A stretch of 64,000 nt of DNA from an uncultured Bacilli bacterium (GTDB taxonomy: Bacteria; Bacillota_I; Bacilli_A; RF39; UBA660): NCBI GenBank assembly GCA_934101595.1, contig CAKORR010000001.1, forward strand, positions 107,558 to 171,557, given 5' to 3'. Each line of letters starts with the position of its first letter. Positions within the stretch are counted from its first letter, which is position 1. Both the position numbers and the translations under genes were made by a program. Under the pieces are notes generated by a model, which saw nothing but the letters and a program-made list of their open reading frames with translations, was not told the origin of the DNA and made no database searches. Shown piece by piece: positions 6,574 to 50,030 of the stretch.

Positions 6574-8109
6574 TTAAGATATACCTAAATCTGCAAATGT
6601 ATTTGTTGAATAATATCCAAATTTAACGTTATTTTGATTTAAACTTGTATTACCTTCGAAAGGTTTTGCCGAAGTAGAACCAAGTGTTATAGTTTTATTA
6701 ATTGTTAAACTATTTAATTTATTATTTTTAAATGCCGATGAATCAATGGTTACTTCGGAGTTTATCTCTAACTCAGTTAAATCATTGCCATAAAAAGCAC
6801 TAGCTTCAATAGTTTTAATTGTCGTCGGTAAGTAAACATTCTTTAATCCGCAATTGTTAAACATTCCATTTGCAATTCTTTCTAAGCCTTCGGGCAATTC
6901 TAACTTGGCTATTTTAATTCCGGTAAAATAATTCACATCTTTTAAATTTAATTGTTTTAAATTACTTAAATCCACAAGATTGTAAAAACAGTCTGTTCTA
7001 CCATCGGTAGTTCCACTACATCCTCCCCAGTTAAATCCTCCAATGACATGGTCTTCTCCACCTTCATCAAGAGGCGTTTTTCCGGTATAGTCTGAGCCAC
7101 TTTTTAAAAACATAAACTTTATGTTCAAGTAAGCGTTGCTTCCATCGTCATTTTCATAAAATACTTGATCTTGACCCAGTGATAATTCTGGATTAATGCT
7201 AAATAAATCTTTGCTTACTTCATCAGATAATTCACTATATCTTATAATGCTTTTCGTTTCGTAGCCACTTTCACTAGCATCAAATTGATTTACTGCAGCA
7301 CTTAACGTATTATAATTAGCTTCATCAAGAATTACATAAACATCTTTTGATTCATTTGTGTCTTGATAATATAAAACATTTCCCTTTTGGAATGTTTGGT
7401 TAATCATATATTTTGCTGTTATTCCTTTAATTGTTTCGGGAACTATTATATTTTCACCACATTTATAATTGTTATAGTAACCCAAAAGTCCATTTGATCC
7501 TATCAAGAAACAATCTTCGCTACTTTCTTTTATCCCCTTTTGTGTTTGGCTTGCTACTACTACTACTTTACTATCAAACACCTTATTTTGTTCGGTCATT
7601 GGTGTATTTTCATCCATCCACATTTTTATACTATGAGTTTTGCTTTTATCCTTTTCACTTGTTCCTAATACTCCAACATATAGTTCTTTATCAAATCTTG
7701 CATTTGCCTCTTTTTTGACATTTACTGTTTCATATTTAGTAAGAGCTCTTCCCACTTTATTATCTAGAGCTATTTTTATATTACTTTCATCTATATAATT
7801 TGTATTTGTGCTATTTGTTAATGCCTCTAAATTTACAGAATATGATATTTCATTATTACAATTATTTGTTACGGTAAATTGATATCCGCTTCCTTTTATT
7901 CCTTCGCTATCTGGTGTTGGAAATGTATTATTTAGGGCTATTCCATCTCCATTATCACTAAAGTTTATATCCAAACATGACGAAGTTAATGTATTTACTC
8001 CACTTTGACTTTTTGTTACTTGCCATAACGCATATGTTCCTGCTACTACTAGTGTTATTAATAACATTACTATTATGCTTGTTAAAATTATCCTCCTTTT
8101 GGTATCCAT
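6574..8109 (-). CDS. exported surface protein, paralog 1: TasA/camelysin-like SipW-type signal peptide + beta-rich domain + BspA-type LRR C-terminus
   Basis: 511 aa. The N-terminus ...LLITLVVAGTYALWQVTKSQSG resembles SipW-cognate signals such as TasA GGGTWAAFND. The C-terminus has LRR_5/BspA-like repeats (LPTTIKTIEASAFYGN..., SSAFKNNKLNSLTI). N-terminal ~300 aa are near-identical to the 34560-36086 protein. Confidence 0.6.
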   Translation of the reverse strand: MDTKRRIILTSIIVMLLITLVVAGTYALWQVTKSQSGVNTLTSSCLDINFSDNGDGIALNNTFPTPDSEGIKGSGYQFTVTNNCNNEISYSVNLEALTNSTNTNYIDESNIKIALDNKVGRALTKYETVNVKKEANARFDKELYVGVLGTSEKDKSKTHSIKMWMDENTPMTEQNKVFDSKVVVVASQTQKGIKESSEDCFLIGSNGLLGYYNNYKCGENIIVPETIKGITAKYMINQTFQKGNVLYYQDTNESKDVYVILDEANYNTLSAAVNQFDASESGYETKSIIRYSELSDEVSKDLFSINPELSLGQDQVFYENDDGSNAYLNIKFMFLKSGSDYTGKTPLDEGGEDHVIGGFNWGGCSGTTDGRTDCFYNLVDLSNLKQLNLKDVNYFTGIKIAKLELPEGLERIANGMFNNCGLKNVYLPTTIKTIEASAFYGNDLTELEINSEVTIDSSAFKNNKLNSLTINKTITLGSTSAKPFEGNTSLNQNNVKFGYYSTNTFADLGIS

Positions 8110-24329: not shown

Positions 24330-24363
24330 GTTCAATCAAAAAGGAACTAGTATTTAGTTCCTT
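24330..24363 (-). terminator. intrinsic terminator overlapping the stop codon of the 24362-25264 gene
   Basis: Minus-strand hairpin AAGGAACTA-AATAC-TAGTTCCTT followed by TTTTGATTG. Confidence 0.5.
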
Positions 24364-25264
24364 AATTATATTTTTCTATCGAAGTTATATTTCCCTTAAA
24401 TCTAGCATCGGAATTATAGTCACCGGTAGTTCCACCTTTGACTCTTATTGAATCTGGTGATGAGATATAAAACTCTACTAAATCTTTTTTAGTTCCATGA
24501 GAATGATACCAAGATCCTCCACTTGAATGAAAATTATTAGTATCGCTTCCCTTGGCGTCAACTATAATAACATCGAATTCATTTCCAGCATCGGTTTTAA
24601 CTTTAAAGGTGTCTCCCTCTGTACCATAATAAGTTCCCATTGCAACAGTATAGTATTTCTTTCCATCACCTTTATCGACATAACGCATTCCCGTATCATC
24701 AGTTTTAACATCAAAAGTTTGGCCTTCATATTTACCATATGGCATTGGTTTACCATTATTAATAGCATAAGCTGTTGTTGATTTATCTGTTACTTTCTCA
24801 TAATTAGTATATGATTTAAAAGATGTATCTCCACTTGGAACATCCATAGCGCTACCTACCGATGGTTCGGCTACATTAGTTTTTTGAGCTGCCTGTTCAC
24901 TTGCACTAGCGCCTAAAATAGCTTTAGCCGCTGCTACGCCAAATGTTAAAGGATCTTGTGAATAAACATCTTCTGCTTTTTTACCTTCAGATTCATCAAT
25001 TTTTTCTGTTTCTGTAGCTATTTCGTTTAACTTGGTTCTAACAGTTTCACCATAATTACCAAACTCTTCTACAAGGGCTACTAATTTGCTATAAGCAGTG
25101 GATATAGTGGCATTAGCAACACCTTGCAAATAGCCTTCTTCATTTATCTTATTTAGATTATTTTTATATTCAGTCAAACATGTATCAATATTATTTTTAG
25201 CTTTTTGTATTGTGCTTGCTAAGGTTTTTAATTCCTCAGGATTAACTTTTGTATAACTTGACAT
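24362..25264 (-). CDS. LXG-like N-terminal domain protein with uncharacterised C-terminal domain (candidate T7SS-type effector A)
   Basis: 300 aa with no signal peptide. N-terminal ~100 aa helical region with EEGYLQGVANATISTAYSKL (LxG + A-x-x-I-x-x-AY, like YeeF-type LXG domains). Linker ...DVYSQDPLTF.... C-terminal ~150 aa is a beta-rich D/G/K/T/Y-rich domain of unknown function, possibly 3D/YuiC-like (very uncertain). Confidence 0.5.
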   Translation of the reverse strand: MSSYTKVNPEELKTLASTIQKAKNNIDTCLTEYKNNLNKINEEGYLQGVANATISTAYSKLVALVEEFGNYGETVRTKLNEIATETEKIDESEGKKAEDVYSQDPLTFGVAAAKAILGASASEQAAQKTNVAEPSVGSAMDVPSGDTSFKSYTNYEKVTDKSTTAYAINNGKPMPYGKYEGQTFDVKTDDTGMRYVDKGDGKKYYTVAMGTYYGTEGDTFKVKTDAGNEFDVIIVDAKGSDTNNFHSSGGSWYHSHGTKKDLVEFYISSPDSIRVKGGTTGDYNSDARFKGNITSIEKYN

Positions 25265-25273
25265 AATACCTCC

Positions 25274-26167
25274 TTATTTCAAGTATTCATTAGACATTTC
25301 ATCATATTTTTGGTCTAATCGATTAGCTAAATCTTGTTTGGTTATTACCCCGTCCTTATTTAGATCTAATCCTGCATTATAATTATAATAAGACTCGCCT
25401 TTTGTTGCTAAAACATCTTTATTTGCTCTACCTGGTAAGAACATTATTGAATAAAGTGTTCCCGCATCAAGCTCTTGATCTTTATTATAATAATTGCAAT
25501 TTTTTACATATTTTTCAACTAAATCAAGTTGATCTGTTGCGGACATATTAGCTATTTCTTCAGTAGTGTAGCCTAAGCTTTTAGCTGTAGCTGGCATAAA
25601 TTGAATTAATCCTACTGCCCTAGTGCTTTTTTCAATGTGATTTGGATTTAATCCACATTCCGAATACATAATAGCTAGTAAGTCATTGGGATCACAATTA
25701 AGATTTTTAGCGACTTCTTCAACCTTAGCACTAAATCCTGGTTCAAACTTTTGATCCAAACTAGAGGCTAAATTAGCATCTATCACTGTTGTCGCAGTAT
25801 TTGAATTAGTTGTTTTAGCGTTTTCATTATAAGTAAGAGGATCCTTAGAATAGATATCCTCCTCTTTTTTCTGCTCTTCATTTTCAATCGCTTCAGTTGA
25901 CGAAACTATTTCTTTTATTTTACCATTAACAGTATCCGCATATTCTATAAAGTCATTTACCAGAGTAGTAATCCTATTATAGGCAATATTAATAGTTTCA
26001 TTAGCAATTCCTTGTAAGTAGCCATTACTACTAATACTATTTAAATTATGGCGATATTCTTCTAAATCAGATGCTAAATTATTCTTGACTGATTTAATGG
26101 AATTTGCTAAATCATTTAGCTCACTAACATTAACTTTAGTATAAGAAAAATTAGCCATTACTACCAC
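25274..26167 (-). CDS. LXG-like N-terminal domain fused to a family-1 lytic transglycosylase (SLT) domain (candidate effector B)
   Basis: 297 aa with no signal peptide. N-terminus has SNGYLQGIANETINIAYNRI. C-terminus has ...MYSECGLNP...AVGLIQFMPATAKSLGY (SLT E-S ... GLMQ...P-x-TA motif) and a Ca-loop-like DLNKDGVITKQD. Confidence 0.6.
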   Translation of the reverse strand: MVVMANFSYTKVNVSELNDLANSIKSVKNNLASDLEEYRHNLNSISSNGYLQGIANETINIAYNRITTLVNDFIEYADTVNGKIKEIVSSTEAIENEEQKKEEDIYSKDPLTYNENAKTTNSNTATTVIDANLASSLDQKFEPGFSAKVEEVAKNLNCDPNDLLAIMYSECGLNPNHIEKSTRAVGLIQFMPATAKSLGYTTEEIANMSATDQLDLVEKYVKNCNYYNKDQELDAGTLYSIMFLPGRANKDVLATKGESYYNYNAGLDLNKDGVITKQDLANRLDQKYDEMSNEYLK

Positions 26168-26451
26168 CTTGTGGCATTACTATCTTCTATTGCTCTTCTA
26201 TACAAAGCATAAGCATGTCTTGAAAGTACATTATTAAAGCTCTTTAACCATAGGCTACTACTTCTCATTTTGCCAGCATATCCAACTAGAGCTGACTTAT
26301 ATGCGGTAGCATCTACACCAACCCAACTTCTAGTATTATTAATAGCATTTAATAAATCATTGATTGTACTATTCATATCATCTAATAAAGAATCCATTTT
26401 TGCAATAGATGCTTTTACACTTTCATAATCAGCTGCGACTACATTCGCCAT
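26161..26451 (-). CDS. WXG100-family protein (EsxA/YukE-like)
   Basis: 96 aa. Two predicted helices with a central SWVGVDATAYKSAL (W-x-G at residues 43-45). Overlaps the start of the downstream gene by 7 nt (translational coupling). Confidence 0.75.
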   Translation of the reverse strand: MANVVAADYESVKASIAKMDSLLDDMNSTINDLLNAINNTRSWVGVDATAYKSALVGYAGKMRSSSLWLKSFNNVLSRHAYALYRRAIEDSNATRW

Positions 26452-26460
26452 TATATCACC

Positions 26461-26796
26461 CTATCCGTTAAAGTTTGTTGGATCAACACTTAATAAGTCA
26501 TTGTATTCTTTATTAAATTCTGATTCAATAGATTTTTCATCACTAATTATTCCATTAATATCATTTGCTACATTTCCACAATAATTATCAAATTTTTCAT
26601 AAACTTGTTTAATTTTAGTCATGTTATTATCAAAAGCCTCTAAAGCTGAACCTTCAATTTGTCCGGAATTAGCAAGCATTTGCATTGCACTAGAAAATGC
26701 ATTTAATGCATTTCCACAAACTCTTTGAGCTGTTTGCATACTTTTTAAAATATCGTTTAACTGATTTGTGTTAACTTGAGTATAACTATTATTCAT
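26461..26796 (-). CDS. stand-alone short LXG-like domain protein (truncated effector N-terminus?)
   Basis: 111 aa, MNNSYTQVNTNQLNDILKSMQ...NSGQIEGSALEAF.... Homologous to the N-termini of the 24362 and 25274 proteins. Ends ...SVDPTNFNG, right at the linker where the paralogs continue into cargo domains. Confidence 0.5.
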   Translation of the reverse strand: MNNSYTQVNTNQLNDILKSMQTAQRVCGNALNAFSSAMQMLANSGQIEGSALEAFDNNMTKIKQVYEKFDNYCGNVANDINGIISDEKSIESEFNKEYNDLLSVDPTNFNG

Positions 26797-26807: not shown

Positions 26808-27101
26808 CTAATCAAAAATTCTAGCATTTCTGTCGCTTTGAGCTCTTTCATATAGTCTCTCGGCATGACTAATTGCTTGGTTCCCTGCAGCTTCCATCCA
26901 TGCTGCACTATTTTTTAATTTTTGGCAAAAATCTAAAAGTGCTGATTTATGAGCAGTTGCATCTACTCCTTGCCATTCTGTAGCATTATTAATTGCACTT
27001 TCTAAGTTGGAAAGTGCTCTAATCATTTCACCTCTTGAAGATGAAGTTTGGTTAATTCTTGATTTAACCAATTCAAAATTTGTTGCAATATTTGAATTCA
27101 T
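26808..27101 (-). CDS. WXG100-family protein (EsxA/YukE-like)
   Basis: 97 aa with a central EWQGVDATAHKSAL (W-x-G at residues 43-45). Paralog of the 26161-26451 protein. Confidence 0.75.
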   Translation of the reverse strand: MNSNIATNFELVKSRINQTSSSRGEMIRALSNLESAINNATEWQGVDATAHKSALLDFCQKLKNSAAWMEAAGNQAISHAERLYERAQSDRNARIFD

Positions 27102-27124: not shown

Positions 27125-27153
27125 AATATATAAAAAATATTCTTCAATGTCAA
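27125..27153 (-). promoter_or_regulatory. candidate sigma-A promoter of the WXG100/LXG operon 1 (TTGACA-17nt-TATATT)
   Basis: TTGACA is the reverse complement of 27148-27153. A 17-nt spacer follows, then TATATT (reverse complement of 27125-27130), about 20 nt upstream of the 26808-27101 start. Confidence 0.45.
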
Positions 27154-27164
27154 TTTAACATATG

Positions 27165-27191
27165 AATGTTTACACTATGCATGTAAACATT
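27165..27191. repeat. perfect 10-bp inverted repeat AATGTTTACA-N7-TGTAAACATT just upstream of the operon-1 -35 box
   Basis: Read directly from the sequence. It has no following U-run on the minus strand, so it is not a classical terminator. It overlaps the stop codon of the 27190-28587 gene. Candidate operator. Confidence 0.5.
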
Positions 27192-28587
27192 AATACTTCG
27201 ATAAAATAGTTCTAAAAGTCTTATCTCCTCTTGGTAAAGCATCAGTAATTCCATGATCAAACAATCCTGAATACCCGCCACCTCTAAATGATCCACCTCG
27301 TTTAATCCATGGAAAACTTGAGGTAGCAAAATAAGATAAGTTACCATACCAAGATTGATATTCAGTAGTATTTGCTTTAGTTTCAAAAGTAGCATCACCC
27401 AAATATCCACGGGTATGATCGAGCATTGCTCCATTATTGTACAATGTATAATACCTCGTTTCTTTAGGAAGTGAACCATTATATCCACCAATATTATCTG
27501 GAAGATTAGGACCACTAATAAGTCCCATTACACACTCCCAAGAACCACCTACCAAATCGTAAATACCATAGATATTACCTGTTGAAGAAGCACCTGTACC
27601 ATAAATTGAAACATCATATTGGTATCTACAATTTGCACTACCTCCAGTTGACACGGTACCAGCTGAACAACCAGTTAATTGATTATCCCAATTATCACTT
27701 CCCATGGCATTATTGATATAAACTCTTTTTACTTTAAAATCATTATTACCAGGTTTTCCATAATTGCTATAAGTAAAATAAGCAATAGCTCCCCATTCCA
27801 TATTTGTTATTATACGTGATGGAGTATCCAGTCCATAACTATCTTTAATCCCTGTTGCGTATTTCCACATAGTAGCCATATTAATGCTTGCTATAGGCTT
27901 TTTATTAGGAACAAGTCTTACTAAATTATTTTCAAGACTTGGTTCAAATTTAGCAATCCAAAAGCCATCTAATTCATAAGTATCTCCGCTTTTATATTGA
28001 GCGGTAAATGCTGGATGTGTATAGTATTCTCCATTTTTTATGGTAGTTTTCTTCGGCGTTGTTTTAGATACTATATTAATTTCAATAATTTGCTCTTTAA
28101 CAAGCTTTTTATCTACATTAAATAATTTGTACTCAAAACGCGGAATCCATACAAAAAAGCCTAAAATTTCATCTAAATTTATTATTTCACCAGGAAGAGC
28201 ATTAGAATATTTTTCGCGATACTCTTCTTTAGCTATTACTACATTAGCCCACCATTCTTTAGAATAATCGTACCATTTTTCTAAAGGATCAGCTTTTTTC
28301 CACGTTTTCTCTTCGAAATCATAATAAACCGGAATCATTGTATTATCAACTAATGGATCACTACCGTTAAGTGTCGGATCACTATACATAGATACAACTG
28401 GTTCATGATTTGGCTTCGCCTTTTCTTTTTCAAAAACATCAACACTTTTATACATAATATGTACATTTGGAAAGAATAATAAACCAAGCGAAATTAGAAT
28501 AAAAAATAAACTTAAATAGGTGATTTTTAACCATACATTTTTACCACTCATGCTTAACACCTTACTATCATTACTATGGTAACACAT
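27190..28587 (-). CDS. membrane-anchored protein with SUMF1/FGE-like (formylglycine-generating-enzyme family) C-terminal domain
   Basis: 465 aa with an N-terminal TM helix. C-terminal region has NMEWGAIAYF, VGGSWECV and WIKRGGSFRGG, reminiscent of FGE-sulfatase (DUF323) RGGSW motifs. Assignment is tentative. Confidence 0.4.
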   Translation of the reverse strand: MCYHSNDSKVLSMSGKNVWLKITYLSLFFILISLGLLFFPNVHIMYKSVDVFEKEKAKPNHEPVVSMYSDPTLNGSDPLVDNTMIPVYYDFEEKTWKKADPLEKWYDYSKEWWANVVIAKEEYREKYSNALPGEIINLDEILGFFVWIPRFEYKLFNVDKKLVKEQIIEINIVSKTTPKKTTIKNGEYYTHPAFTAQYKSGDTYELDGFWIAKFEPSLENNLVRLVPNKKPIASINMATMWKYATGIKDSYGLDTPSRIITNMEWGAIAYFTYSNYGKPGNNDFKVKRVYINNAMGSDNWDNQLTGCSAGTVSTGGSANCRYQYDVSIYGTGASSTGNIYGIYDLVGGSWECVMGLISGPNLPDNIGGYNGSLPKETRYYTLYNNGAMLDHTRGYLGDATFETKANTTEYQSWYGNLSYFATSSFPWIKRGGSFRGGGYSGLFDHGITDALPRGDKTFRTILSKY

Positions 28588-34559: not shown

Positions 34560-36086
34560 TTAACTAATATTTAAATCTGCAAATGTATTTGTCGAATAAT
34601 ATCCAAATTTAACGTTATTTTGATTTAAACTTGTATTACCTTCGAAAGGTTTATACTTAGTAGAACTAAGTGTTATTGTTTTATTAATTGTTAAACTATT
34701 TAATTTATTATTTTTAAATGCCGATGAATCAATGGTTACTTCGGAGTTTATCTCTAACTCTGTTATGTTATTACTAGAAAAAGCGTTGTCGCCAATTTCT
34801 TTAAGAGTTGTCGGTAAATAAACATTTGTTAATCCACAATTGGAAAACATTTGCTGTGCTATTTTTTCTAGCCCTTCAGGTAATTCCAATTTAGATATTT
34901 TAATCCCAGGAAAGTATTCATAATCTCCTAAATTCAATTGTTTTAATTTACTTAAATCCACAAGATTGTAAAAACAATCTGTTCTATCTGAGTCATACAT
35001 GCAACTTGCAGAGTTATATAAACCAATTATATAATCTGTACCCATTACTACTTCGGTAGGATTATTTCCAGAATAGTCTGTGCCGCTTTTTAAATACATA
35101 AACTTTATACCATTGTATACGCTGCTGCCATCGTCATTTGTATAGTCGTCGCCAATGCCAATCATTGAATTTGGAATACTAAACAAATCTTTGCTTACTT
35201 CATCAGATAATTCACTATATCTTATAATGCTTTTCGTTTCATAACCACTTTCGCTCGCATCAAATTGATTTACTGCAGCACTTAACGTATTATAATTAGC
35301 TTCGTCAAGAATTACATAAACGTCTTTTGATTCATTTGTGTCTTGATAATATAAAACATTTCCCTTTTGAAAAGCCGGGTTAATCATATTTTTTGGCGTT
35401 ATTCCTTTAATTGTTTCGGGAACTATTATATTTTCACCACATTTATAATTGTTATAGTAACCCAAAAGTCCATTTGATCCTATCAAGAAACAATCTTCGC
35501 TACTTTCTTTTATCCCCTTTTGTGTTTGGCTTGCTACTACTACTACTTTACTATCAAACACCTTATTTTGTTCGGTCATTGGTGTATTTTCATCCATCCA
35601 CATTTTTATACTATGAGTTTTGCTTTTATCCTTTTCACTTGTTCCTAATACTCCAACATATAGTTCTTTATCAAATCTTGCATTTGCCTCTTTTTTGACA
35701 TTTACTGTTTCATATTTAGTAAGAGCTCTTCCCACTTTATTATCTAGAGCTATTTTTATATTACTTTCATCTATATAATTTGTATTTGTGCTATTTGTTA
35801 ATGCCTCTAAATTTACAGAATATGATATTTCATTATTACAATTATTTGTTACGGTAAATTGATATCCGCTTCCTTTTATTCCTTCGCTATCTGGTGTTGG
35901 AAATGTATTATTTAGGGCTATTCCATCTCCATTATCACTAAAGTTTATATCCAAACATGACGAAGTTAATGTATTTACTCCACTTTGACTTTTTGTTACT
36001 TGCCATAACGCATATGTTCCTGCTACTACTAGCGTTATTAATAACATTACTATTATGCTTGTTAAAATTATCTTCCTCTTATTCAT
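34560..36086 (-). CDS. exported surface protein, paralog 2 (TasA-like signal + LRR), driven by a poly-G-containing promoter
   Basis: 508 aa. Residues 5-225 are identical to paralog 1, then a mosaic divergent middle and a similar LRR C-terminus. RBS GAAGGTAGG. Confidence 0.6.
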   Translation of the reverse strand: MNKRKIILTSIIVMLLITLVVAGTYALWQVTKSQSGVNTLTSSCLDINFSDNGDGIALNNTFPTPDSEGIKGSGYQFTVTNNCNNEISYSVNLEALTNSTNTNYIDESNIKIALDNKVGRALTKYETVNVKKEANARFDKELYVGVLGTSEKDKSKTHSIKMWMDENTPMTEQNKVFDSKVVVVASQTQKGIKESSEDCFLIGSNGLLGYYNNYKCGENIIVPETIKGITPKNMINPAFQKGNVLYYQDTNESKDVYVILDEANYNTLSAAVNQFDASESGYETKSIIRYSELSDEVSKDLFSIPNSMIGIGDDYTNDDGSSVYNGIKFMYLKSGTDYSGNNPTEVVMGTDYIIGLYNSASCMYDSDRTDCFYNLVDLSKLKQLNLGDYEYFPGIKISKLELPEGLEKIAQQMFSNCGLTNVYLPTTLKEIGDNAFSSNNITELEINSEVTIDSSAFKNNKLNSLTINKTITLSSTKYKPFEGNTSLNQNNVKFGYYSTNTFADLNIS

Positions 36087-36137: not shown

Positions 36138-36164
36138 GCAAAAAAACACGATATATTCGTGTTT
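36138..36164 (-). terminator. intrinsic terminator downstream of the 36177-36548 gene, abutting the -35 box
   Basis: Minus-strand hairpin AAACACG-AATATAT-CGTGTTT followed by TTTTTT, then GCTTGACA. Confidence 0.55.
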
Positions 36165-36176
36165 ACATATGCAAAT

Positions 36177-36548
36177 CTAATTATTATGAGCACTATCATT
36201 ATTTAGTGCCATTGATTCAATCTTAATACTATCACTAGCATTTTCAATGTCTTTTGAAACTTCTGTATCAGTACCTTGTTCAGCTTCTACAGTGTCGTTA
36301 ATAAACTTTGTCATATCGGCAAGTTCGTTTTGTAATGTTTCAATAATAGATTGTGATCCACTATTACAAAAGCTATTAAAATCTTCAAAAAATCTTTCGC
36401 TTTTTGGTCCGATCCATGATTTGTTTTCTTCAAGATTTTTAAAGTCTTTTAAAATGGTTTCAATATTTACGATAGTTGAATTCATATAGTCTTTTAACTT
36501 TGATGATATATTTAAAACTTCATCTGTATTTATATATTTTTCTTGCAT
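36177..36548 (-). CDS. WXG100-like small helical protein (W-I-G-P-K-S subtype)
   Basis: 123 aa with a central ...ENKSWIGPKSERFFEDF. Homologous to the 40493-40810 protein (YWLGPKSAIFAEKI). Acidic C-terminal tail. Confidence 0.6.
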   Translation of the reverse strand: MQEKYINTDEVLNISSKLKDYMNSTIVNIETILKDFKNLEENKSWIGPKSERFFEDFNSFCNSGSQSIIETLQNELADMTKFINDTVEAEQGTDTEVSKDIENASDSIKIESMALNNDSAHNN

Positions 36549-36555
36549 AATTCAC

Positions 36556-36825
36556 CTACCTATAAATATCTATTTGTTGATACTCTTTAATATATCTTGA
36601 AAGTTTTTCATTATAATTTTTTAATCCATTAACTACTTTTCTTAGATATACAAGGGTTTCTCCATTTATGTGCCTATCGAATGCTCTTTGATATTTACTA
36701 CTCCAAGCTGTGGTATTACCTGTTAAGTTTTGAATTAATGGAATATTTTCTTGCACTCTTTGGATTAATGTAGCGATATCTTGACAAGCATCAGAAACAT
36801 CTTGATATTTAATTTTTGTATTCAT
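36556..36825 (-). CDS. small helical WXG100-like partner protein (degenerate W-S-S)
   Basis: 89 aa, ...TAWSSKYQRAFDRHINGETLVYLRKVV... Homologous to the 40823-41095 protein (GEWKGKYQEEYDNHINGKTEKYLRKLV). Confidence 0.5.
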   Translation of the reverse strand: MNTKIKYQDVSDACQDIATLIQRVQENIPLIQNLTGNTTAWSSKYQRAFDRHINGETLVYLRKVVNGLKNYNEKLSRYIKEYQQIDIYR

Positions 36826-36840
36826 AATAATCTCCCTTTT

Positions 36841-38511
36841 TTATGAAGCTTTATTTGCTTTCGCATAAATGTTGCCTGTATTTATATAAGAACCTTTTTC
36901 TAATCTTGTATCAACCCCTTGTTTCTTTTGATAATAATTGGCAATCTCATCAGCACTTTTACCTGCTAACTCTTCTTCAGTAAAGTCTGTTTTAGCATAT
37001 TCCAAATGCAAATGGGTTCCAGATGATCGGCCTGTACTTCCCATTATACCAATTGGACTATCGTCTGTTATAACATCGCCGGCTTTAACTTTAGGAGTCT
37101 CTCTTAAGTGGGCATATCTACTCATATAATACGATATAGTTCCATCATCATTTATTACCTCGTGAAGCATAACAACTTCATTACCATAGCCATAATTTGA
37201 ATGTCCTGAATAGACTACAACTCCCTCTTGGATAGGTTTTATAGAAACATTTTCTCGTGATCCCTCAGGAACATAATCACAGCCCCTATGGTCAAAATAA
37301 CCATTACCAGTGCCGTCTTCACTCCATCTCGAATCTATGTATGAACTAATTCTATATGCGTTATTTAATGGCAAATTTATATCTGTTTTTTCAAAAGAAG
37401 AGGCTTCAACGCTCCAACTTGATTTTGAAAGTTTTTCGTAAGAAGCTAATTTATTTATAACTAATGGCTCTATTTCTTCTTTCTCGGCATCAATATAAGT
37501 TTTAGTTACATTTCCTAAATCATTAGAAGCACCTTTTACAGTTGAAGCTAAACCAGGGATTATTATAACTTGGCCAACTTCTATTTGATTTGGGTTAGAA
37601 ATAGTATCTCTATTTGCTTCATATATTTCTTCCCAATCAACACCATACTTTTCAGCAATTTTACTTAATGAGTCACCGCTTGCAATAGTGTATTTCAAAG
37701 GCTCTGTTTTTTTCTCTCCTTCTACTTCCTCATTTAAAGTTTCATCTGCTAAATCTATTAAAACAACGTCTTCATTATTCTCATATTTTGTAATATTATC
37801 AATATGATTTTTACTTTTAACTATAACATCTGTAGCAGCACTTTTTATTTTCTCGATATTTTTTATGATAACACTTCTAAAAGTGCCAATTGGTTCTCTT
37901 ATTATTTTCGCTTTACCATTATACTTTGATATAACTTCCAAAGTACGATTATCATATGTTGAATTACCTAAAGCAGTAATTGTATTTTCACATATTGTAA
38001 TAAGATTTTCGAATAAAGTCGTAACGTTTTCTGCAAAATCTGTTTGGATGCCGAAAACTTCATTTCTTATCATGCCCTGAACTGCAGGTATATTCCAATA
38101 AATTTTAAATTCTTCTCGTAAAATACCAATTCTACGTTGAGTATCAATAAGTTTATTTTTAGCCCTATAATATTCTTGCATATAATGTTCCCATACGGAT
38201 GTCGAAGCCGTACCATCATTTACATGTTCTTTCATAACGGCACAATTATCAAGAGCATCCATAAATTGCTGAAGATCTATTTTTTCTTCTTCAACAAGTA
38301 TAACCATTTCATCTAATTTATTTATTTGATTGATTACATTATTAACAGATGGATATCCAACACTATTAACCATATCTCTTAACTTTTGGCCAACTTGAAA
38401 AGCAACAAACCCCACCCAAGGATCGCTTTCGCTATCACCAAAAAGAGAATTCGGAGCAATTCTTCGAGAAGTTAAAATCCAATTTTGTAAATCAGTTGTA
38501 TTTATGGCCAT
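36841..38511 (-). CDS. LXG/WXG-like N-terminal domain + LysM + M23 (LytM-type) metalloendopeptidase (candidate effector I)
   Basis: 556 aa with no signal peptide. N-terminus has SLFGDSESDPWVGFVAF (L-x-G and W-x-G). LysM at YTIASGDSLSKIAEKYGVDWEEIYEANRD...GQVIIIPG. M23 motifs FDHRGCD (HxxxD) and GTHLHLEY (HxH) are intact. Confidence 0.65.
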   Translation of the reverse strand: MAINTTDLQNWILTSRRIAPNSLFGDSESDPWVGFVAFQVGQKLRDMVNSVGYPSVNNVINQINKLDEMVILVEEEKIDLQQFMDALDNCAVMKEHVNDGTASTSVWEHYMQEYYRAKNKLIDTQRRIGILREEFKIYWNIPAVQGMIRNEVFGIQTDFAENVTTLFENLITICENTITALGNSTYDNRTLEVISKYNGKAKIIREPIGTFRSVIIKNIEKIKSAATDVIVKSKNHIDNITKYENNEDVVLIDLADETLNEEVEGEKKTEPLKYTIASGDSLSKIAEKYGVDWEEIYEANRDTISNPNQIEVGQVIIIPGLASTVKGASNDLGNVTKTYIDAEKEEIEPLVINKLASYEKLSKSSWSVEASSFEKTDINLPLNNAYRISSYIDSRWSEDGTGNGYFDHRGCDYVPEGSRENVSIKPIQEGVVVYSGHSNYGYGNEVVMLHEVINDDGTISYYMSRYAHLRETPKVKAGDVITDDSPIGIMGSTGRSSGTHLHLEYAKTDFTEEELAGKSADEIANYYQKKQGVDTRLEKGSYINTGNIYAKANKAS

Positions 38512-38595
38512 ATTACCACGTCTCTTTCCCTATTCTTTATCATGTTAATTATAATATTATTCTCACATTAAATCAATTATAAAATTAAATACATT

Positions 38596-38623
38596 AAAAT
38601 AAAAATTACAGGGCACCCTGTAA
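38596..38623 (-). terminator. GC-rich intrinsic terminator between the LysM-SLT and LysM-M23 genes
   Basis: Minus-strand hairpin TTACAGGG-TG-CCCTGTAA (plus 38606-38623) followed by TTTTTATTTT. A TTGATT-17nt-TATAAT promoter candidate follows at about 38540-38575. Confidence 0.55.
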
Positions 38624-38627
38624 TCTT

Positions 38628-40484
38628 CTACATTATATCTCGTAACATTTCCGTATACTTCTTATTTAAACGATTAGCTAGATCTTGTTTAGTTATTACT
38701 CCATCGCCATCCACGTCTAAACCCCTATTATAAGAATAATAGCTTTCGCCTTTGACACATAAAGTATTTTTCTTGGCTCTACCTGGTAAGAACATAACCG
38801 CATATAATGTACCAGCATCTAATTCTTCGCCATTTTTGTAAGGACTAGCGCTTTTAATATATTTTTCAACTAAATCAAGTTGATCTGTTGCGGACATATT
38901 GGCTATCTGTTCAGTCGTGTAACCAAGATTACGAGCAGTGCTTGGCATAAATTGGATAAGGCCAACAGCTCTACTACTGCTTTCAATATGAGATGGATCA
39001 AGAGCACATTCTGAATACATAAGAGCAAGTAAATCATTTGGATCACAATTAACATTTTTAGCGACTTGTTCTAGTTTAGCACTAAATCCTGGCTCGAATC
39101 TGTCATCCAAACAACTTGCTAAAGCACTATCTAATACTTCTACTTTAGGAGAGCTAGTATTAGTACTTGTCTGAGCCGCGGATACTCCTTTTTCATTTGC
39201 TCTTTTATGGGCAGCTTCATTTCTATCTTTAGTTGCTTGTTCTCTTTCACTAATTTCCTTAGTATCACTTTCTTTAGATACAGCTTCTTTAACTTCTGTT
39301 TTTTCTTTAACCTCAGATTTTTTATCATCCTTACCAGATTCTGTTTCGTCAGTCTTTTTAGTTGCCACACTAACAGAACCAATGGCTGCAGCACCAATTA
39401 CGCCTTCAAATACTGGAGGGTTAATATCAAATGCTTCCTCTTCTTTTTCCTCAAACTTAAGACCTGTATATTTGCTAATAACATCTGCGGCACTTACAGG
39501 ATCATTACTTTCTTCTTTTTGACCTGGAATTGTAAGCACTTGTCCAGGATATATCAAGTTTGGATTATCGATCTTATCAGCGTTTGCTTCATAAAGCTCT
39601 TTCCAGTCAATTCCATATTTCGCTGCAATTTTAATTAAATAGTCACCTTTTTCAACAACATATGTTCCGTGATTAGAAGATGTACTATCACTACTAGTCC
39701 TTTTTCTTTCTTTAGCATATTCAAAGTCATTACGATATTCAAATTGTTTAATCTTGGCAAAATGATATTTTAACAAATTTAATTGGCGAGTTGCTTCATC
39801 AAGACATTTTTTAATATTAACTTTTATATTATTACACGCTGAATAGAAAAAACCACTAACTTGATAATCACTAGAAGATAAATCGTCATTGCCACTTGGA
39901 ATTTGAAAATCACTTGACCTCATGGAATTCATATTCAACATTTGCATATTTAAATATTTTACTATATTATTTAAGGGCTCAATGACTTGCTTCTCAAAAG
40001 TTGCTAAGTTTATCTCATATTTATCTGAATTATAGTTTTCCCATGGAGTAACCTCTATTTCCACAATTGGAGTTAAAACAGAAACTATTTCTTCTTTCTT
40101 TTTGATGATTTTCTTTTTTAATTCTTTAAGTGTCGAAGATATTATAATCTTTTGTTGAGCCAACATATAAACGTCCGCATGATCTTTATATGCAATTTCT
40201 TCATCTATAGTTTTGCACGCTTTGTATTTACTTTCATAAGATAACTTTAGGGCAAGTAAACCATCGGTTGGATTCATTACTAAATCAACCGCTTTGCTAT
40301 AATCTTTTAGCTGGTACATAATGCCTTCATTTTGGATATAGCTCAACATTCTATCAATAATATAGCATCTCCGCTTTAATTCAGCTGCTCTTTTTCCGTA
40401 AAACATCAAAGTTGCCGGATTAAATCTTTTAGATATCTGATATGCAAGAAAAATATTATTTGTATCTATTTTTACTTTAACCAT
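38628..40484 (-). CDS. LXG-like N-terminal domain + LysM + family-1 lytic transglycosylase (SLT) (candidate effector H)
   Basis: 618 aa with no signal peptide. N-terminus has ...LMFYGKRAAELKRRCYII (compare F-x-G-K-x-A-x-x-I-K of LXG domains). LysM at YVVEKGDYLIKIAAKYGIDWKELYEANAD...GQVLTIPG, then a K/E-rich low-complexity linker. The C-terminal SLT domain is about 70% identical to that of 25274-26167 (MYSECALDP...AVGLIQFMPSTARNLGY). Confidence 0.65.
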   Translation of the reverse strand: MVKVKIDTNNIFLAYQISKRFNPATLMFYGKRAAELKRRCYIIDRMLSYIQNEGIMYQLKDYSKAVDLVMNPTDGLLALKLSYESKYKACKTIDEEIAYKDHADVYMLAQQKIIISSTLKELKKKIIKKKEEIVSVLTPIVEIEVTPWENYNSDKYEINLATFEKQVIEPLNNIVKYLNMQMLNMNSMRSSDFQIPSGNDDLSSSDYQVSGFFYSACNNIKVNIKKCLDEATRQLNLLKYHFAKIKQFEYRNDFEYAKERKRTSSDSTSSNHGTYVVEKGDYLIKIAAKYGIDWKELYEANADKIDNPNLIYPGQVLTIPGQKEESNDPVSAADVISKYTGLKFEEKEEEAFDINPPVFEGVIGAAAIGSVSVATKKTDETESGKDDKKSEVKEKTEVKEAVSKESDTKEISEREQATKDRNEAAHKRANEKGVSAAQTSTNTSSPKVEVLDSALASCLDDRFEPGFSAKLEQVAKNVNCDPNDLLALMYSECALDPSHIESSSRAVGLIQFMPSTARNLGYTTEQIANMSATDQLDLVEKYIKSASPYKNGEELDAGTLYAVMFLPGRAKKNTLCVKGESYYSYNRGLDVDGDGVITKQDLANRLNKKYTEMLRDIM

Positions 40485-40492
40485 ACCTTCAC

Positions 40493-40810
40493 CTACTTTA
40501 CTGATTGTCCAATTGCGTCATCAGTTTCTTCAACTTGACCGCAGGCGTCTTTTATAAATTTTATTAATCCATCGAAATCACTTTCAACATTATCTAAAAT
40601 TGCTCCAGAGTTTTCATTTTTAGCAAAAAATTGAGCTATTTTCTCTGCAAAAATAGCAGATTTTGGACCAAGCCAATAATCGCTGGTTATTTTTTCATAT
40701 GATTGCTTTATAACATTAATATCAGTTAAAATTTCATTTTTCTTAGCGTTTAAAACATCTGCTTTGGCTAATAGTCTATCATAATCGACCATTTGGGTAT
40801 TATCGTTCAT
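40493..40810 (-). CDS. WXG100-like small helical protein (W-L-G-P-K-S subtype)
   Basis: 105 aa with a central SDYWLGPKSAIFAEKIAQFF. Confidence 0.6.
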   Translation of the reverse strand: MNDNTQMVDYDRLLAKADVLNAKKNEILTDINVIKQSYEKITSDYWLGPKSAIFAEKIAQFFAKNENSGAILDNVESDFDGLIKFIKDACGQVEETDDAIGQSVK

Positions 40811-40822
40811 TTCTTCACCTAC

Positions 40823-41095
40823 TTATTGATCTATTTTTTGGTAACCTTGCATAGTTTTTTCTAAATAATTATTAAAATCTTCAAAACAGGTTACCAATTT
40901 TCTTAAATATTTTTCTGTTTTACCATTAATATGATTGTCATATTCCTCTTGATATTTGCCTTTCCATTCACCATTAGAAATGGCATCGTTTAACATAGAA
41001 TCAATACTAAGTTGTAGTTGTGAAATATATCTTTTAATAAGATTAATTTCATTTCTAATTTCAGTATAATGAACAGAAACCTTCTCATTATTCAT
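40823..41095 (-). CDS. small helical WXG100-like partner protein (W-K-G)
   Basis: The track ORF extends to 41197, but the likely start is ATG at 41093-41095 (MNNEKVSVHYTEIRNE...), preceded by AAGGTG. 90 aa with a central GEWKGKYQEEY. The 5' extension would overlap the mutS terminator. Confidence 0.5.
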   Translation of the reverse strand: MNNEKVSVHYTEIRNEINLIKRYISQLQLSIDSMLNDAISNGEWKGKYQEEYDNHINGKTEKYLRKLVTCFEDFNNYLEKTMQGYQKIDQ

Positions 41096-48356: not shown

Positions 48357-50030
48357 TTATAATTCATATTTAACTACAGCATCACCGCTCCAGTTACTTC
48401 CTAAAGTCATTCCTGTTGCATCAGCTCTTTTTATAGTAATTGTTGATGCATTAGTTAGGCCATTAAATGCTCTATCATCTATTTTGGTTACACTATTTGG
48501 AATAATGACATTTGTAATTGTTGACTGAGCAAACGCGGCGTTATAAATTTCCGTATATCCTTGGGCAATTTCTAATTTATTAATTTTCATGTTTGTGAAT
48601 GCGCCATTAGCAACTGTTTCATTAGTATTAATATGGCCTAAAATATCATGACCAGTTACATACGTAAATGTTAAATTATTAATGGTTGACCCTTCAAAAT
48701 ATCCTATTGCACTATACTCATTTACAGGGTTAAATATTAATGATCCATAAAGTTCTAGAGTATCAATATTACTATAGGCAAATGCTCCAACACCAATTTT
48801 TATATCACTAGTATTAACTCCAAAATTTAGACTTGTTAGTCCAACTCTTTGAGTTTGTGTTGTATCAAGTTCATATGATGTTTTTCCATCACTTGTCGTC
48901 TCTTTATACATAACATTTGAAAATGCAAATTTTTCTATTTCTTCTAGTTTAGTGGCTTTTGAGAAATTAACACCTTTTATTACTAAAGAAGCACTAACTT
49001 TTGGCGTTTGGCTTACCGTCATTTCACCGTCTTCACTTTCAGGTAAAATATAATATAATCCTTCTTCTCCAGCCGTTGCCGTTTCGGGTACATCAGATTC
49101 TTTAGTTACATAAGTAATAGTTGCTGTTTGATCCTCTTCTGTTAAACCATTTAGTAATGCTTCTATACGTGATCTATTTGATTCATTTTTTACAAGAATA
49201 TAATATTTCATTCCTATGTAAACATCGTTAGTAGAGTCATATGTTGCATTTGATGAATCATTCCACATCATAAAATCAGTTAAGTCCTTTTCTTGTCTAA
49301 ATGCACTTGTTGCTATTTTCTTAACATCTTTTTTATTAACACTTTCAGGAATAACTACATTTTCTCCACATGAAGTATCATATGCGGTAATCACTCCATT
49401 AGAATCTATTGTAAAGCAGTTTTCTGGAGTAGCAACTAAACCTTCATTGTCATTTTTAATTCCTTGTCCACCCGTTATAAATATTTTTCCATTAAATTGT
49501 TTTCCTTGTTCAGTAATAGGTGCATTTTCATCAATCCATATTTTTAGCAAATGAGTCTTAGTGGCATTACCACCTATAGATGCGGTTTTTAATTCTTTTG
49601 ATGATCTATAAGTATCAGGGCCTTCGATATCATTTAAACTACCATATGTTCCTAAAACCTCATTATCTATAGATAGTGCAACAGCACTATCTGACATATA
49701 TCCCGTATTTGCATCCCCATCTACTGATTCCAAACCTATAATATAATTTACGGCATTACTACAATTATTAGTTACCGTAAAAGTGTATCCAGTTAAATCA
49801 TTTTGAGCATTAGCACTAGTCATTGGCCAGCTATTTTCTAAACTGATGGGTGTGCCTTCGCCTACTTTATTAAGATCTAAATCTAGACATGCCGCGATCA
49901 TGCTATTTTTATCTTTTTGAGTTTTAGTTACTTGCCATAAGGCATAAGTCGAAGCAACTATTATTAAAAGAACTAAGCAGATTCCAATAGACATACCAAT
50001 AATTTTATTACGTCTAACACTATTTTCCAT
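48357..50030 (-). CDS. exported surface protein, paralog 3 (TasA-like signal + LRR)
   Basis: 557 aa. N-terminus ...LLIIVASTYALWQVTKTQKDKNS. Shared core CFTIDSNGVITAYDTSCGENVVIPESV. LRR-like C-terminus. Upstream TTGACT-18nt-TATTAT promoter candidate has no homopolymer. Confidence 0.6.
   Translation of the reverse strand: MENSVRRNKIIGMSIGICLVLLIIVASTYALWQVTKTQKDKNSMIAACLDLDLNKVGEGTPISLENSWPMTSANAQNDLTGYTFTVTNNCSNAVNYIIGLESVDGDANTGYMSDSAVALSIDNEVLGTYGSLNDIEGPDTYRSSKELKTASIGGNATKTHLLKIWIDENAPITEQGKQFNGKIFITGGQGIKNDNEGLVATPENCFTIDSNGVITAYDTSCGENVVIPESVNKKDVKKIATSAFRQEKDLTDFMMWNDSSNATYDSTNDVYIGMKYYILVKNESNRSRIEALLNGLTEEDQTATITYVTKESDVPETATAGEEGLYYILPESEDGEMTVSQTPKVSASLVIKGVNFSKATKLEEIEKFAFSNVMYKETTSDGKTSYELDTTQTQRVGLTSLNFGVNTSDIKIGVGAFAYSNIDTLELYGSLIFNPVNEYSAIGYFEGSTINNLTFTYVTGHDILGHINTNETVANGAFTNMKINKLEIAQGYTEIYNAAFAQSTITNVIIPNSVTKIDDRAFNGLTNASTITIKRADATGMTLGSNWSGDAVVKYEL

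Follow-up and report, generated by a model that had tools for sequence, protein, structure and literature searches.

Interchangeable peptidoglycan hydrolases beside WXG100-like genes in an uncultured Bacilli bacterium: a candidate type VII-style export system

What are two copies of one lytic module doing on two otherwise different proteins of the same chromosome? The question is raised by the genes for a 297-amino acid (aa) and a 618-aa protein in a 64,000-nucleotide stretch (the window) of an uncultured Bacilli bacterium (contig CAKORR010000001.1), both of which end in an SLT-type lytic transglycosylase module. The preliminary description of this DNA took the pair for cassette exchange of cargo between LXG-type carriers at a polymorphic toxin locus, and the hydrolases for exported effectors, not housekeeping autolysins. 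Our own answer, held with moderate confidence, is that the two genes probably belong to a type VII-style export system for interchangeable peptidoglycan hydrolases, in which the SLT module is one cargo on two handles.

We compared the open reading frames (ORFs) at 25274-26167 and 38628-40484, both on the minus strand. BLASTP aligned the 297-aa and 618-aa proteins (E=2e-91) over a common C-terminal block, in which 114 of 157 residues (72.6%) were identical without a gap from FEPGF to the C-terminus, in agreement with the about 70% first reported for the last ~150 aa. The shared modules are as follows.

25277-25786, minus strand: SLT cargo module, copy 1, predicted family-1 lytic transglycosylase with a C-terminal EF-hand-like loop DLNKDGVITKQD
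38646-39137, minus strand: SLT cargo module, copy 2, 73.8% identical to copy 1 over 164 aa (tblastn)

Local DNA alignment of the two C-terminal regions gave 73-75% identity over ~480 nucleotides (nt) (25294-25772 versus 38645-39123), with 76/85/58% at the three codon positions. Similarity extended over the whole ~165-aa domain; confinement to the catalytic motif had been named as the result that would refute the observation, which therefore stands. The long identical DNA stretches described earlier were also found: the 26-mer cited as an example has exactly two occurrences, at positions 25524 and 38875 (0 expected by chance), and sits within a 42-nt identical run (25508-25549 and 38859-38900). 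This run comprises 14 consecutive identical codons (shuffle P ~0.002), despite an overall synonymous divergence (dS) of 1.23, and could be a short gene-conversion tract or a sign of constraint at the nucleotide level. The N-terminal parts of the two proteins showed no similarity by BLASTP or profile comparison, as had been claimed; in the 297-aa protein, this part is a short hairpin that resembles WXG100 and has Y-L-x-G at its turn, and in the 618-aa protein it is an orphan.

The Pfam SLT profile (PF01464) matched copy 1 with 35.7 bits and copy 2 with 30.3 bits (gathering cut-off, 21.3), the match covering only the first ~55 of 117 profile positions, and both copies also touched Pfam Phage_lysozyme2. 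The PDB entry 9udh_A, a 164-residue 'lytic transglycosidase', aligned over the full module (E=4e-21), including the C-terminal D-L-N-K-D-x-x-I-T-K loop. The best PHROG families were tail lysins and baseplate hubs (phrog_13530, E=1e-32; baseplate hub phrog_196, E=3e-22; range to 1e-20), and the phage internal protein 9k2v_E in the PDB contains the SLT domain. In an alignment with 12 relatives and 9udh, MYSEC(G/A) and AVGLIQFMP of both copies correspond to ESG and GLIQFMP, the Ser of the E-S catalytic motif being replaced by Cys in this lineage. These matches identify the shared segment as a complete SLT lytic transglycosylase domain of the phage tail or baseplate lysin type and not a mere motif. 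The EF-hand-like loop (D-[LV]-[ND]-[KG]-D-G-V-I-T-K-Q-D; ~25316-25351 and ~38676-38711) is conserved family-wide, including 9udh, and might confine activity to the outside of the cell, where Ca2+ is abundant; this has been reported for TelC.

In a common alignment, the two copies shared 72% identity with each other, and neither exceeded 57% with any other protein; for the SLT cargo that this carrier family bears in another species (P0082), the value was 55%. The best non-orthologous relative of copy 1 in a search of 5.8 billion proteins was 59% identical. The two copies are thus each other's closest known relatives, which places the duplication of the domain, and its attachment to a second N-terminus, in this lineage. 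Nonsynonymous divergence (dN) between them was 0.18, giving a dN/dS of 0.15; the duplication is old, and both copies are under purifying selection. Recent cassette exchange between the two SLT genes, which we considered as an alternative, is ruled out by the dS of 1.23.

The module is widespread: GTDB representative genomes hold it in at least 591 loci. Its closest relatives in reference genomes (44-58% identity) come mostly from gut Gastranaerophilales (Melainabacteria; L009-L084), in which the modules follow low-complexity (N/F/P-rich) or long coiled-coil N-termini, suggesting that the lysin domain is shared across phyla among gut bacteria. Elsewhere it sits on Rhs tips, PG_binding_1 proteins, coiled-coil proteins, and low-complexity N-termini. 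In a Lutispora metagenome-assembled genome (MAG; L085, 158-2067), an Rhs core (DPLGLW) is tipped by the SLT module and directly followed by a DUF5991 lipoprotein gene, whose product is a plausible candidate immunity protein; in P0040, the module is likewise the C-terminal tip behind an Rhs core. A Clostridiaceae MAG (L087; JAAYPF010000150.1, 2179-9779) encodes 756-aa and 751-aa paralogues, each followed by a lipoprotein gene, which share ~290 aa comprising a helical N-region and PG_binding_1. In one, the cargo consists of SLT, LysM, and a C-terminal domain; the other bears Phage_lysozyme2 and an NlpC/P60-like region (recognised by eye only). The arrangement looks like a toxin-immunity pair built from wall hydrolases. 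From the Rhs and Clostridiaceae loci, therefore, the SLT module seems to serve elsewhere as a true polymorphic-toxin tip.

Within the window, copy 1 belongs to locus A (27101 to 24362), which encodes, in order, proteins of 97, 111, 96, 297 (SLT), and 300 aa.

27125-27153, minus strand: promoter-like site before locus A (TTGACA-17-TATATT, 11/12), a consensus match only
26808-27101, minus strand: WXG-a, first gene, predicted 97-aa WXG100-superfamily protein, W-x-G conserved
26461-26796, minus strand: carrier-only protein of 111 aa, an N-domain without cargo, homologous to the N-domains of the 297-aa and 300-aa proteins
26161-26451, minus strand: WXG-b, predicted 96-aa WXG100-superfamily protein, W-x-G conserved, same PDB profile matches as WXG-a
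25823-26158, minus strand: carrier N-domain (~112 aa) of the 297/294-aa protein, a helical hairpin with a Y-L-x-G turn
24362-25264, minus strand: 300-aa second carrier-plus-cargo protein, same carrier family, probable double-psi beta-barrel (DPBB; RlpA/MltA/expansin-like) cargo
24341-24363, minus strand: terminator-like hairpin directly after the 300-aa gene, at the end of the locus A operon

WXG-b is a paralogue of WXG-a (39% identical in the alignment, 40.4% by tblastn). The 297-aa protein likely starts at the ATG at 26158, which gives 294 aa, the length of its database orthologues. Its carrier domain is 29% identical to the 111-aa protein and 51% identical to the 300-aa protein. AlphaFold was uninformative for the 300-aa protein from the single sequence (predicted local distance difference test score, 38) and only moderate with seven sequences.

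Copy 2 belongs to locus B (41095 to 36177). Promoter- and terminator-like sites divide this locus into two units, the first with the genes for the 90-, 105-, and 618-aa proteins and the second with those for the 556-aa protein and then the 89- and 123-aa proteins.

40823-41095, minus strand: WXG100-like protein of 90 aa, ending in YQKID, W-x-G aligned (Pfam WXG100 E=3e-4, below cut-off)
40493-40810, minus strand: WXG100-like protein of 105 aa, W-x-G aligned (Pfam WXG100 E=0.0025, below cut-off)
38628-40484, minus strand: 618-aa protein with an orphan N-domain (~270 aa), LysM (aa 275-320; Pfam LysM 1e-15), a charged linker, and SLT copy 2
38601-38628, minus strand: terminator-like hairpin with a 12-bp stem, after the 618-aa gene
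38548-38576: promoter-like site before the 556-aa gene, a consensus match
36841-38511, minus strand: 556-aa protein with an orphan N-domain, LysM (3e-15), and an M23 endopeptidase domain (Peptidase_M23 1e-14)
36556-36825, minus strand: 89-aa paralogue of the 90-aa WXG-like protein, ending in YQQIDIYR
36177-36548, minus strand: 123-aa paralogue of the 105-aa WXG-like protein
36144-36164: terminator-like hairpin after the 123-aa gene

The ORF of the 90-aa protein extends to 41197; it is called as 90 aa in L001. Resemblance between the 556-aa and 618-aa proteins is limited to the LysM region.

Small helical genes accompany the hydrolases of both loci: in locus A, three lie upstream of the hydrolase, and locus B has two for each hydrolase. 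We aligned 12 of the partner proteins (89-123 aa) from the window and related loci; the W was invariant, and the central G was present in 11. When the profile of this alignment was compared with the PDB, hits 1-8 were EsxB of Bacillus anthracis and EsxA of Staphylococcus aureus (E=9e-5 to 4e-4), and SAG1039 and gbs1074 of Streptococcus agalactiae stood at ranks 12-13 (E up to 1e-2); the ranks between were held by one spike-derived construct and two entries of the Helicobacter pylori hypothetical protein HP0062. The alignments with EsxB, EsxA, SAG1039, and gbs1074 were full length with W-x-G in register. By these profile matches, the small partner proteins are assigned to the WXG100 (EsxA/EsxB) superfamily. 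Additionally, the 90- and 89-aa proteins carry, as read by eye, YxxxD tails (YQKID, 40826-40852; YQQID, 36556-36582) that resemble the type VII export-arm signal.

A hydropathy scan found no signal peptide or membrane segment in any of the 12 proteins of the two loci, whose maximum 19-residue hydropathy was at most 1.43, versus 2.2 and 2.7 in two membrane-anchored neighbours. Four predicted peptidoglycan hydrolases without a Sec signal each lie beside WXG100-like genes; therefore, type VII-style export is favoured. To that extent, the earlier claim that the hydrolases are exported finds support in the sequence, but it does not follow that they are effectors and not autolysins.

The carrier N-domain (~110 aa) defines a rare family. 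A search with its hidden Markov model returned only 35 proteins from 1.84 billion representative proteins, either stand-alone (109-113 aa) or with the domain followed by cargo. The carriers gave repeated sub-threshold WXG100/TIGR03930 matches in the same register; the 111-aa protein, with stand-alone orthologues among P0070-P0077, reached TIGR03930 at E=6e-5 and the 297-aa carrier domain at E=3e-4 (Pfam WXG100 at E=0.02), all below cut-off. Across 19 carrier sequences, the hairpin turn reads G-Y-L-x-G or S-L-L-E-G and always keeps its last G; no such L-x-G motif was seen in a similar setting in the N-domains of the 618- and 556-aa proteins.

This one carrier family bears six types of cargo: SLT, Phage_lysozyme2, 3D, DPBB-like, CHAP, and endolysin-like. 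SLT is borne by P0001 and P0082, Phage_lysozyme2 by P0074, P0076, P0078, and P0083, a 3D domain by P0089, and CHAP by P0093; the domain of the 300-aa protein recurs in P0068, P0073, P0079, P0081, and P0087, and P0084 and P0086 are related to it. The cargo of P0067, P0086, P0097, and P0080 had no family match, that of P0080 resembling 3D by eye. No nuclease, NADase, or pore-former domain was recognised among the carrier cargo, and every assignable cargo is of a predicted peptidoglycan hydrolase type.

The cargo differs between paralogues, between species, and between strains of the same species. A module of four genes is conserved, namely WXG-a, carrier-only, WXG-b, and carrier plus cargo, and WXG-a orthologues hold the same position in L003, L004, and L007. 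In L003, the module leads into two cargo genes, lysozyme2 and SLT. It is tandemly duplicated after rpoBC in L004/L005, where the duplicates agree fully in their first three proteins but carry different cargo, and the cargo in L007 is a 3D domain. A scan with the WXG-a alignment had no match in GTDB representative genomes or viral contigs and found only the same species in JGI metagenomes.

A swap of cargo within the species was seen in the 300-aa gene.

24368-24883, minus strand: swapped cargo segment, unrelated sequence in other strains (316-aa allele)

A contig from another sample (L002) is 98.8% identical to the window over 25292-24884 and 99.6% over 24367-22109, and the cargo between is replaced (compare 410-983 in L002 and 6001-6951 in L089). 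The full variant locus, on a 102-kb contig of this species from a Hadza human-gut metagenome (L089), encodes proteins of 97, 111, 96, 294 (SLT), 316, and 125 aa, followed by recD2. The 300-aa allele was found on ~75 contigs and the 316-aa allele on ~41, with the small proteins on ~100; the two are a common two-allele polymorphism in the species, and both loci are present in essentially all of its assemblies. The 316-aa cargo had no Pfam family, and PDB and NCBIfam searches gave no identification. Its relatives are often PG_binding_1 fusions or stand-alone proteins of ~160-177 aa, others having Sec signals or different helical N-termini; judging by this architecture, it is most likely another wall hydrolase. 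Independent assemblies break between the 297-aa gene and the next (L008 ends at 25274, and L002 starts at 25292), which fits repeated carrier sequence and strain polymorphism at this junction.

No immunity-gene candidate follows the cargo in the window, L003, L004/L005, L007, or L089. The intergenic gaps measure 9 nt (25265-25273) and 116 nt (38512-38627) and hold no gene for an extracellular immunity protein. The downstream 125-aa gene was considered as an immunity gene and rejected: it is unchanged when the cargo is swapped, its product is cytoplasmic (no signal peptide), and it lies behind the terminator. A tblastn search of eight cargo types against the window returned only the two annotated SLT copies, and thus no orphan cassettes.

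The window belongs to the core chromosome of a low-GC (28.5%) Firmicute that forms spores, with nearly all genes on the minus strand, among them ftsA-ftsZ-spoIIGA-sigE-sigG, spoIVB, xseA-nusB, mutS, lon, recD2, and ileS. Its FtsZ shares a cluster, at 90% identity or more, with MBQ4583631.1, a protein from a Bacilli MAG. It contains no phage genes. A 465-aa membrane-anchored protein is encoded directly upstream of locus A (27190-28587); it has no Pfam, NCBIfam, or PHROG match, and its C-terminal region resembles by eye an FGE-sulfatase-type domain. Four BspA-type leucine-rich-repeat paralogues (6574-8109, 34560-36086, 48357-50030, and 50131-51951) have in common a membrane anchor with the motif TYALWQVTK behind it; over the N-terminal ~90 aa, the first two hardly differ (98.5% DNA identity over 336 nt).

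How might such loci work? In the export system that we favour, the helical carrier and its WXG100-like partners would assemble into a pre-secretion complex, a helical bundle like that of LXG toxins with their Lap partners, and a type VIIb secretion ATPase whose gene lies in another part of the genome would recognise and export this complex. Outside the membrane, the hydrolase domain would cleave the glycan strands of peptidoglycan. The carrier would be a plug-in export handle whose cargo has been swapped repeatedly. The results show the identity of the domain, its duplication, the WXG100 relationship of the partners, the lack of Sec signals, the swapping of cargo, and the lack of linked immunity genes and orphan cassettes; dependence on a type VII secretion system (T7SS), and the question of whose wall is cut, are matters of inference.

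Several observations weigh against this proposal. The matches of single proteins to WXG100 in Pfam and NCBIfam all lie below the curated cut-offs, and Pfam LXG (PF04740) had no match at E<=0.1 in the 297-, 300-, 618-, or 556-aa proteins; the LXG chain 8gmh_B in the PDB reached only E=0.04-0.07. None of the T7SS core components EssC, EsaA, and EssB is encoded in the 64-kb window or within 10 kb of the related loci. The N-domains of the 618- and 556-aa proteins had no detectable relatives: the carrier-family profile showed no relationship to either, and a local phmmer comparison of the 618-aa N-domain with the collected proteins found only its own cluster. No homologues were found for the N-terminal 262 aa of the 618-aa protein, a weak negative, as the same search also missed its own cluster. 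The promoter and terminator calls at both loci are consensus matches only.

The exported hydrolases could be an immunity-independent bacteriolytic weapon or self-directed autolysins, and we regard the two as about equally probable. The balanced cargo polymorphism, the tandem modules with different cargo, and the use of SLT in Rhs toxins favour a weapon. The lack of immunity genes, the presence in virtually all strains, the purifying selection on both SLT copies, and the all-hydrolase assignable cargo favour autolysins. O-acetylation of N-acetylmuramic acid blocks lytic transglycosylases and lysozymes, and because of this block, O-acetylated peptidoglycan could protect a producer without an immunity protein. 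Should the autolysin side hold throughout, a type VII-like pathway would be the routine export route for the bacterium's own wall hydrolases, and the four-gene cassette a handle for autolysins that have no Sec signal. We consider this tentative, a minority possibility; if true, T7SS and WXG100 proteins would have a housekeeping role in wall remodelling, beyond conflict and virulence.

Unlikely, in our view, is that these are wall enzymes for sporulation, germination, mother-cell lysis, or division that do not depend on a T7SS and arrive at the wall by a route other than Sec, for instance from the mother cell, with the WXG-like proteins acting as cytoplasmic chaperones or inhibitors. The organism is a spore former, and the window itself holds spoIIGA-sigE-sigG and spoIVB. 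Both loci lie in the core chromosome, co-oriented with housekeeping genes, and their genes are kept across strains without immunity genes. The LysM domains are SafA-type-like (TIGR02899 E=5e-13, below cut-off), and the SLT and M23 pair recalls cooperating hydrolase pairs. Against such enzymes, the partners fall in WXG100, a family known only from type VII secretion, and a balanced two-allele cargo with tandem modules of differing cargo would be unusual for them. The promoter match of locus A is sigma-70-like and not of the sporulation type, which is weak evidence.

Classical polymorphic toxins, that is, LXG-type antibacterial substrates of a T7SS with cassette-exchanged cargo and a cognate immunity protein each, fit the loci rather poorly, and we find this reading improbable. 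Cargo does differ on a constant carrier between strains and between tandem paralogues, so the variable-cargo part of the original toxin proposal stands. The SLT module does occur as mobile cargo on unrelated N-termini, both here and, in the survey of related genomes, on Rhs, PG_binding_1, and coiled-coil carriers. In the Rhs locus and the 756/751-aa pair, it is accompanied by a lipoprotein gene each time, and peptidoglycan-degrading toxin domains are known in polymorphic toxins (PMC3482391). However, the carriers lack a Pfam LXG match, the exchange is not recent, orphan cassettes are absent from the window, and no gene for an extracellular immunity protein lies between or after the cargo genes, the 125-aa gene staying constant on the swap. 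Only wall hydrolases or unassigned domains were found as cargo, with no recognised nuclease, NADase, or pore-former, and the loci occur in essentially every assembly of the species. Because immunity pairing and orphan cassettes are lacking, the exchange is old, and the presence of the loci is housekeeping-like, the conclusion that these are effectors, not autolysins, is not supported.

It is doubtful that the hydrolases open the producer's own peptidoglycan for a T7SS or other apparatus, in the manner of EssH or of the VirB1-type transglycosylases of type IV secretion systems. EssH of S. aureus has a Sec signal peptide and is not known to be fused to a WXG-like domain, and this counts against such a role here. 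The SLT and M23/CHAP classes are typical of secretion machines, no immunity protein would be needed, and S. aureus depends on EssH for T7SSb secretion (PMC10765036; PMC13059805). However, the loci do not adjoin any secretion-machine genes, and four or five hydrolases per genome with strain-polymorphic cargo exceed the need of a single apparatus. Lastly, we reject a prophage origin, in which the SLT genes would be decayed virion-associated lysins of a phage-tail-like remnant, as very improbable: the best PHROG matches are to baseplate hubs and tail lysins and 9k2v_E has the domain, but there is no phage context nearby, both copies are under purifying selection, neither the WXG-like proteins nor the carriers have a significant PHROG match (the 111-aa protein has a marginal tape-measure hit, E=0.005), and the WXG-a profile matched no viral contig.

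The favoured export system can be set beside several known ones. Bacteriolysins (class III bacteriocins such as lysostaphin and zoocin A) and the muramidase and amidase effectors of type VI secretion (Tse3, Tge, and Tae) are secreted peptidoglycan hydrolases directed against neighbours, and their M23 and glycosidase classes overlap with the cargo seen here. They are exported by Sec or by type VI secretion and are paired with an immunity protein or a wall-modifying enzyme. The module itself is shared with phage virion-associated lysins and PDB 9udh, including the E-S/C motif, GLIQFMP, and the DLNKDG-ITK loop; unlike in phage lysins, it is chromosomal here, on WXG100-like or LysM-bearing N-termini, without phage context. 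With Rhs toxins, the loci have in common the SLT module family, found as the tip after the Rhs core in L085 and P0040, and the modular cargo, but a DUF5991 lipoprotein gene lies directly downstream in the Rhs loci and not in those of the window. S. aureus EssH, a CHAP enzyme, is also a peptidoglycan hydrolase functionally tied to type VII secretion, but its gene, single and conserved, lies at the T7SS locus, and it is not known to be fused to a WXG-like domain.

The closest comparison is with the LXG effectors and their partners Lap1 and Lap2 (DUF3130/DUF3958), such as TelC and TelD of Streptococcus intermedius. In the LXG model, the toxin gene is preceded by two small helical genes, whose products join the toxin in a heterotrimeric pre-secretion complex (PMC9600955). 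The present loci share with it a helical handle at the N-terminus and variable cargo at the C-terminus, two or three small WXG100-like genes immediately upstream, and the absence of a Sec signal; the turn in the carrier may also be of the L-x-G type. They differ in that the carrier has ~110 aa versus ~200 aa in LXG, the partners match neither DUF3130 nor DUF3958, all assignable cargo is of peptidoglycan hydrolase type, and the loci are core-genome loci away from a T7SS cluster, with no immunity gene. The proposed system would work like LXG/Lap effectors but has neither a Pfam LXG match nor toxin-immunity pairing.

TelC, too, has its target in the wall pathway on the outer side of the membrane, and it requires Ca2+ (PMC9600955; PMC10765036). 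A 2023 review of T7SSb names this lipid II phosphatase as a wall-directed substrate and EssH as an accessory hydrolase (PMC10765036). In the literature covered, the T7SSb substrates are small WXG100 proteins and LXG-type toxins with immunity proteins, TelC being the only wall-directed one, and our full-text literature searches found no glycan-cleaving or endopeptidase wall hydrolase fused to a WXG/LXG-like carrier. A carrier family with hydrolases as its cargo, wherever assignable, and without linked immunity would widen the known range of type VII substrates. The system would be useful for asking how a short helical handle and WXG partners specify export, and its modular lysin domains are of possible practical interest as enzybiotic parts. 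It also raises the question of how a Gram-positive producer avoids, or uses, its own exported lysins.

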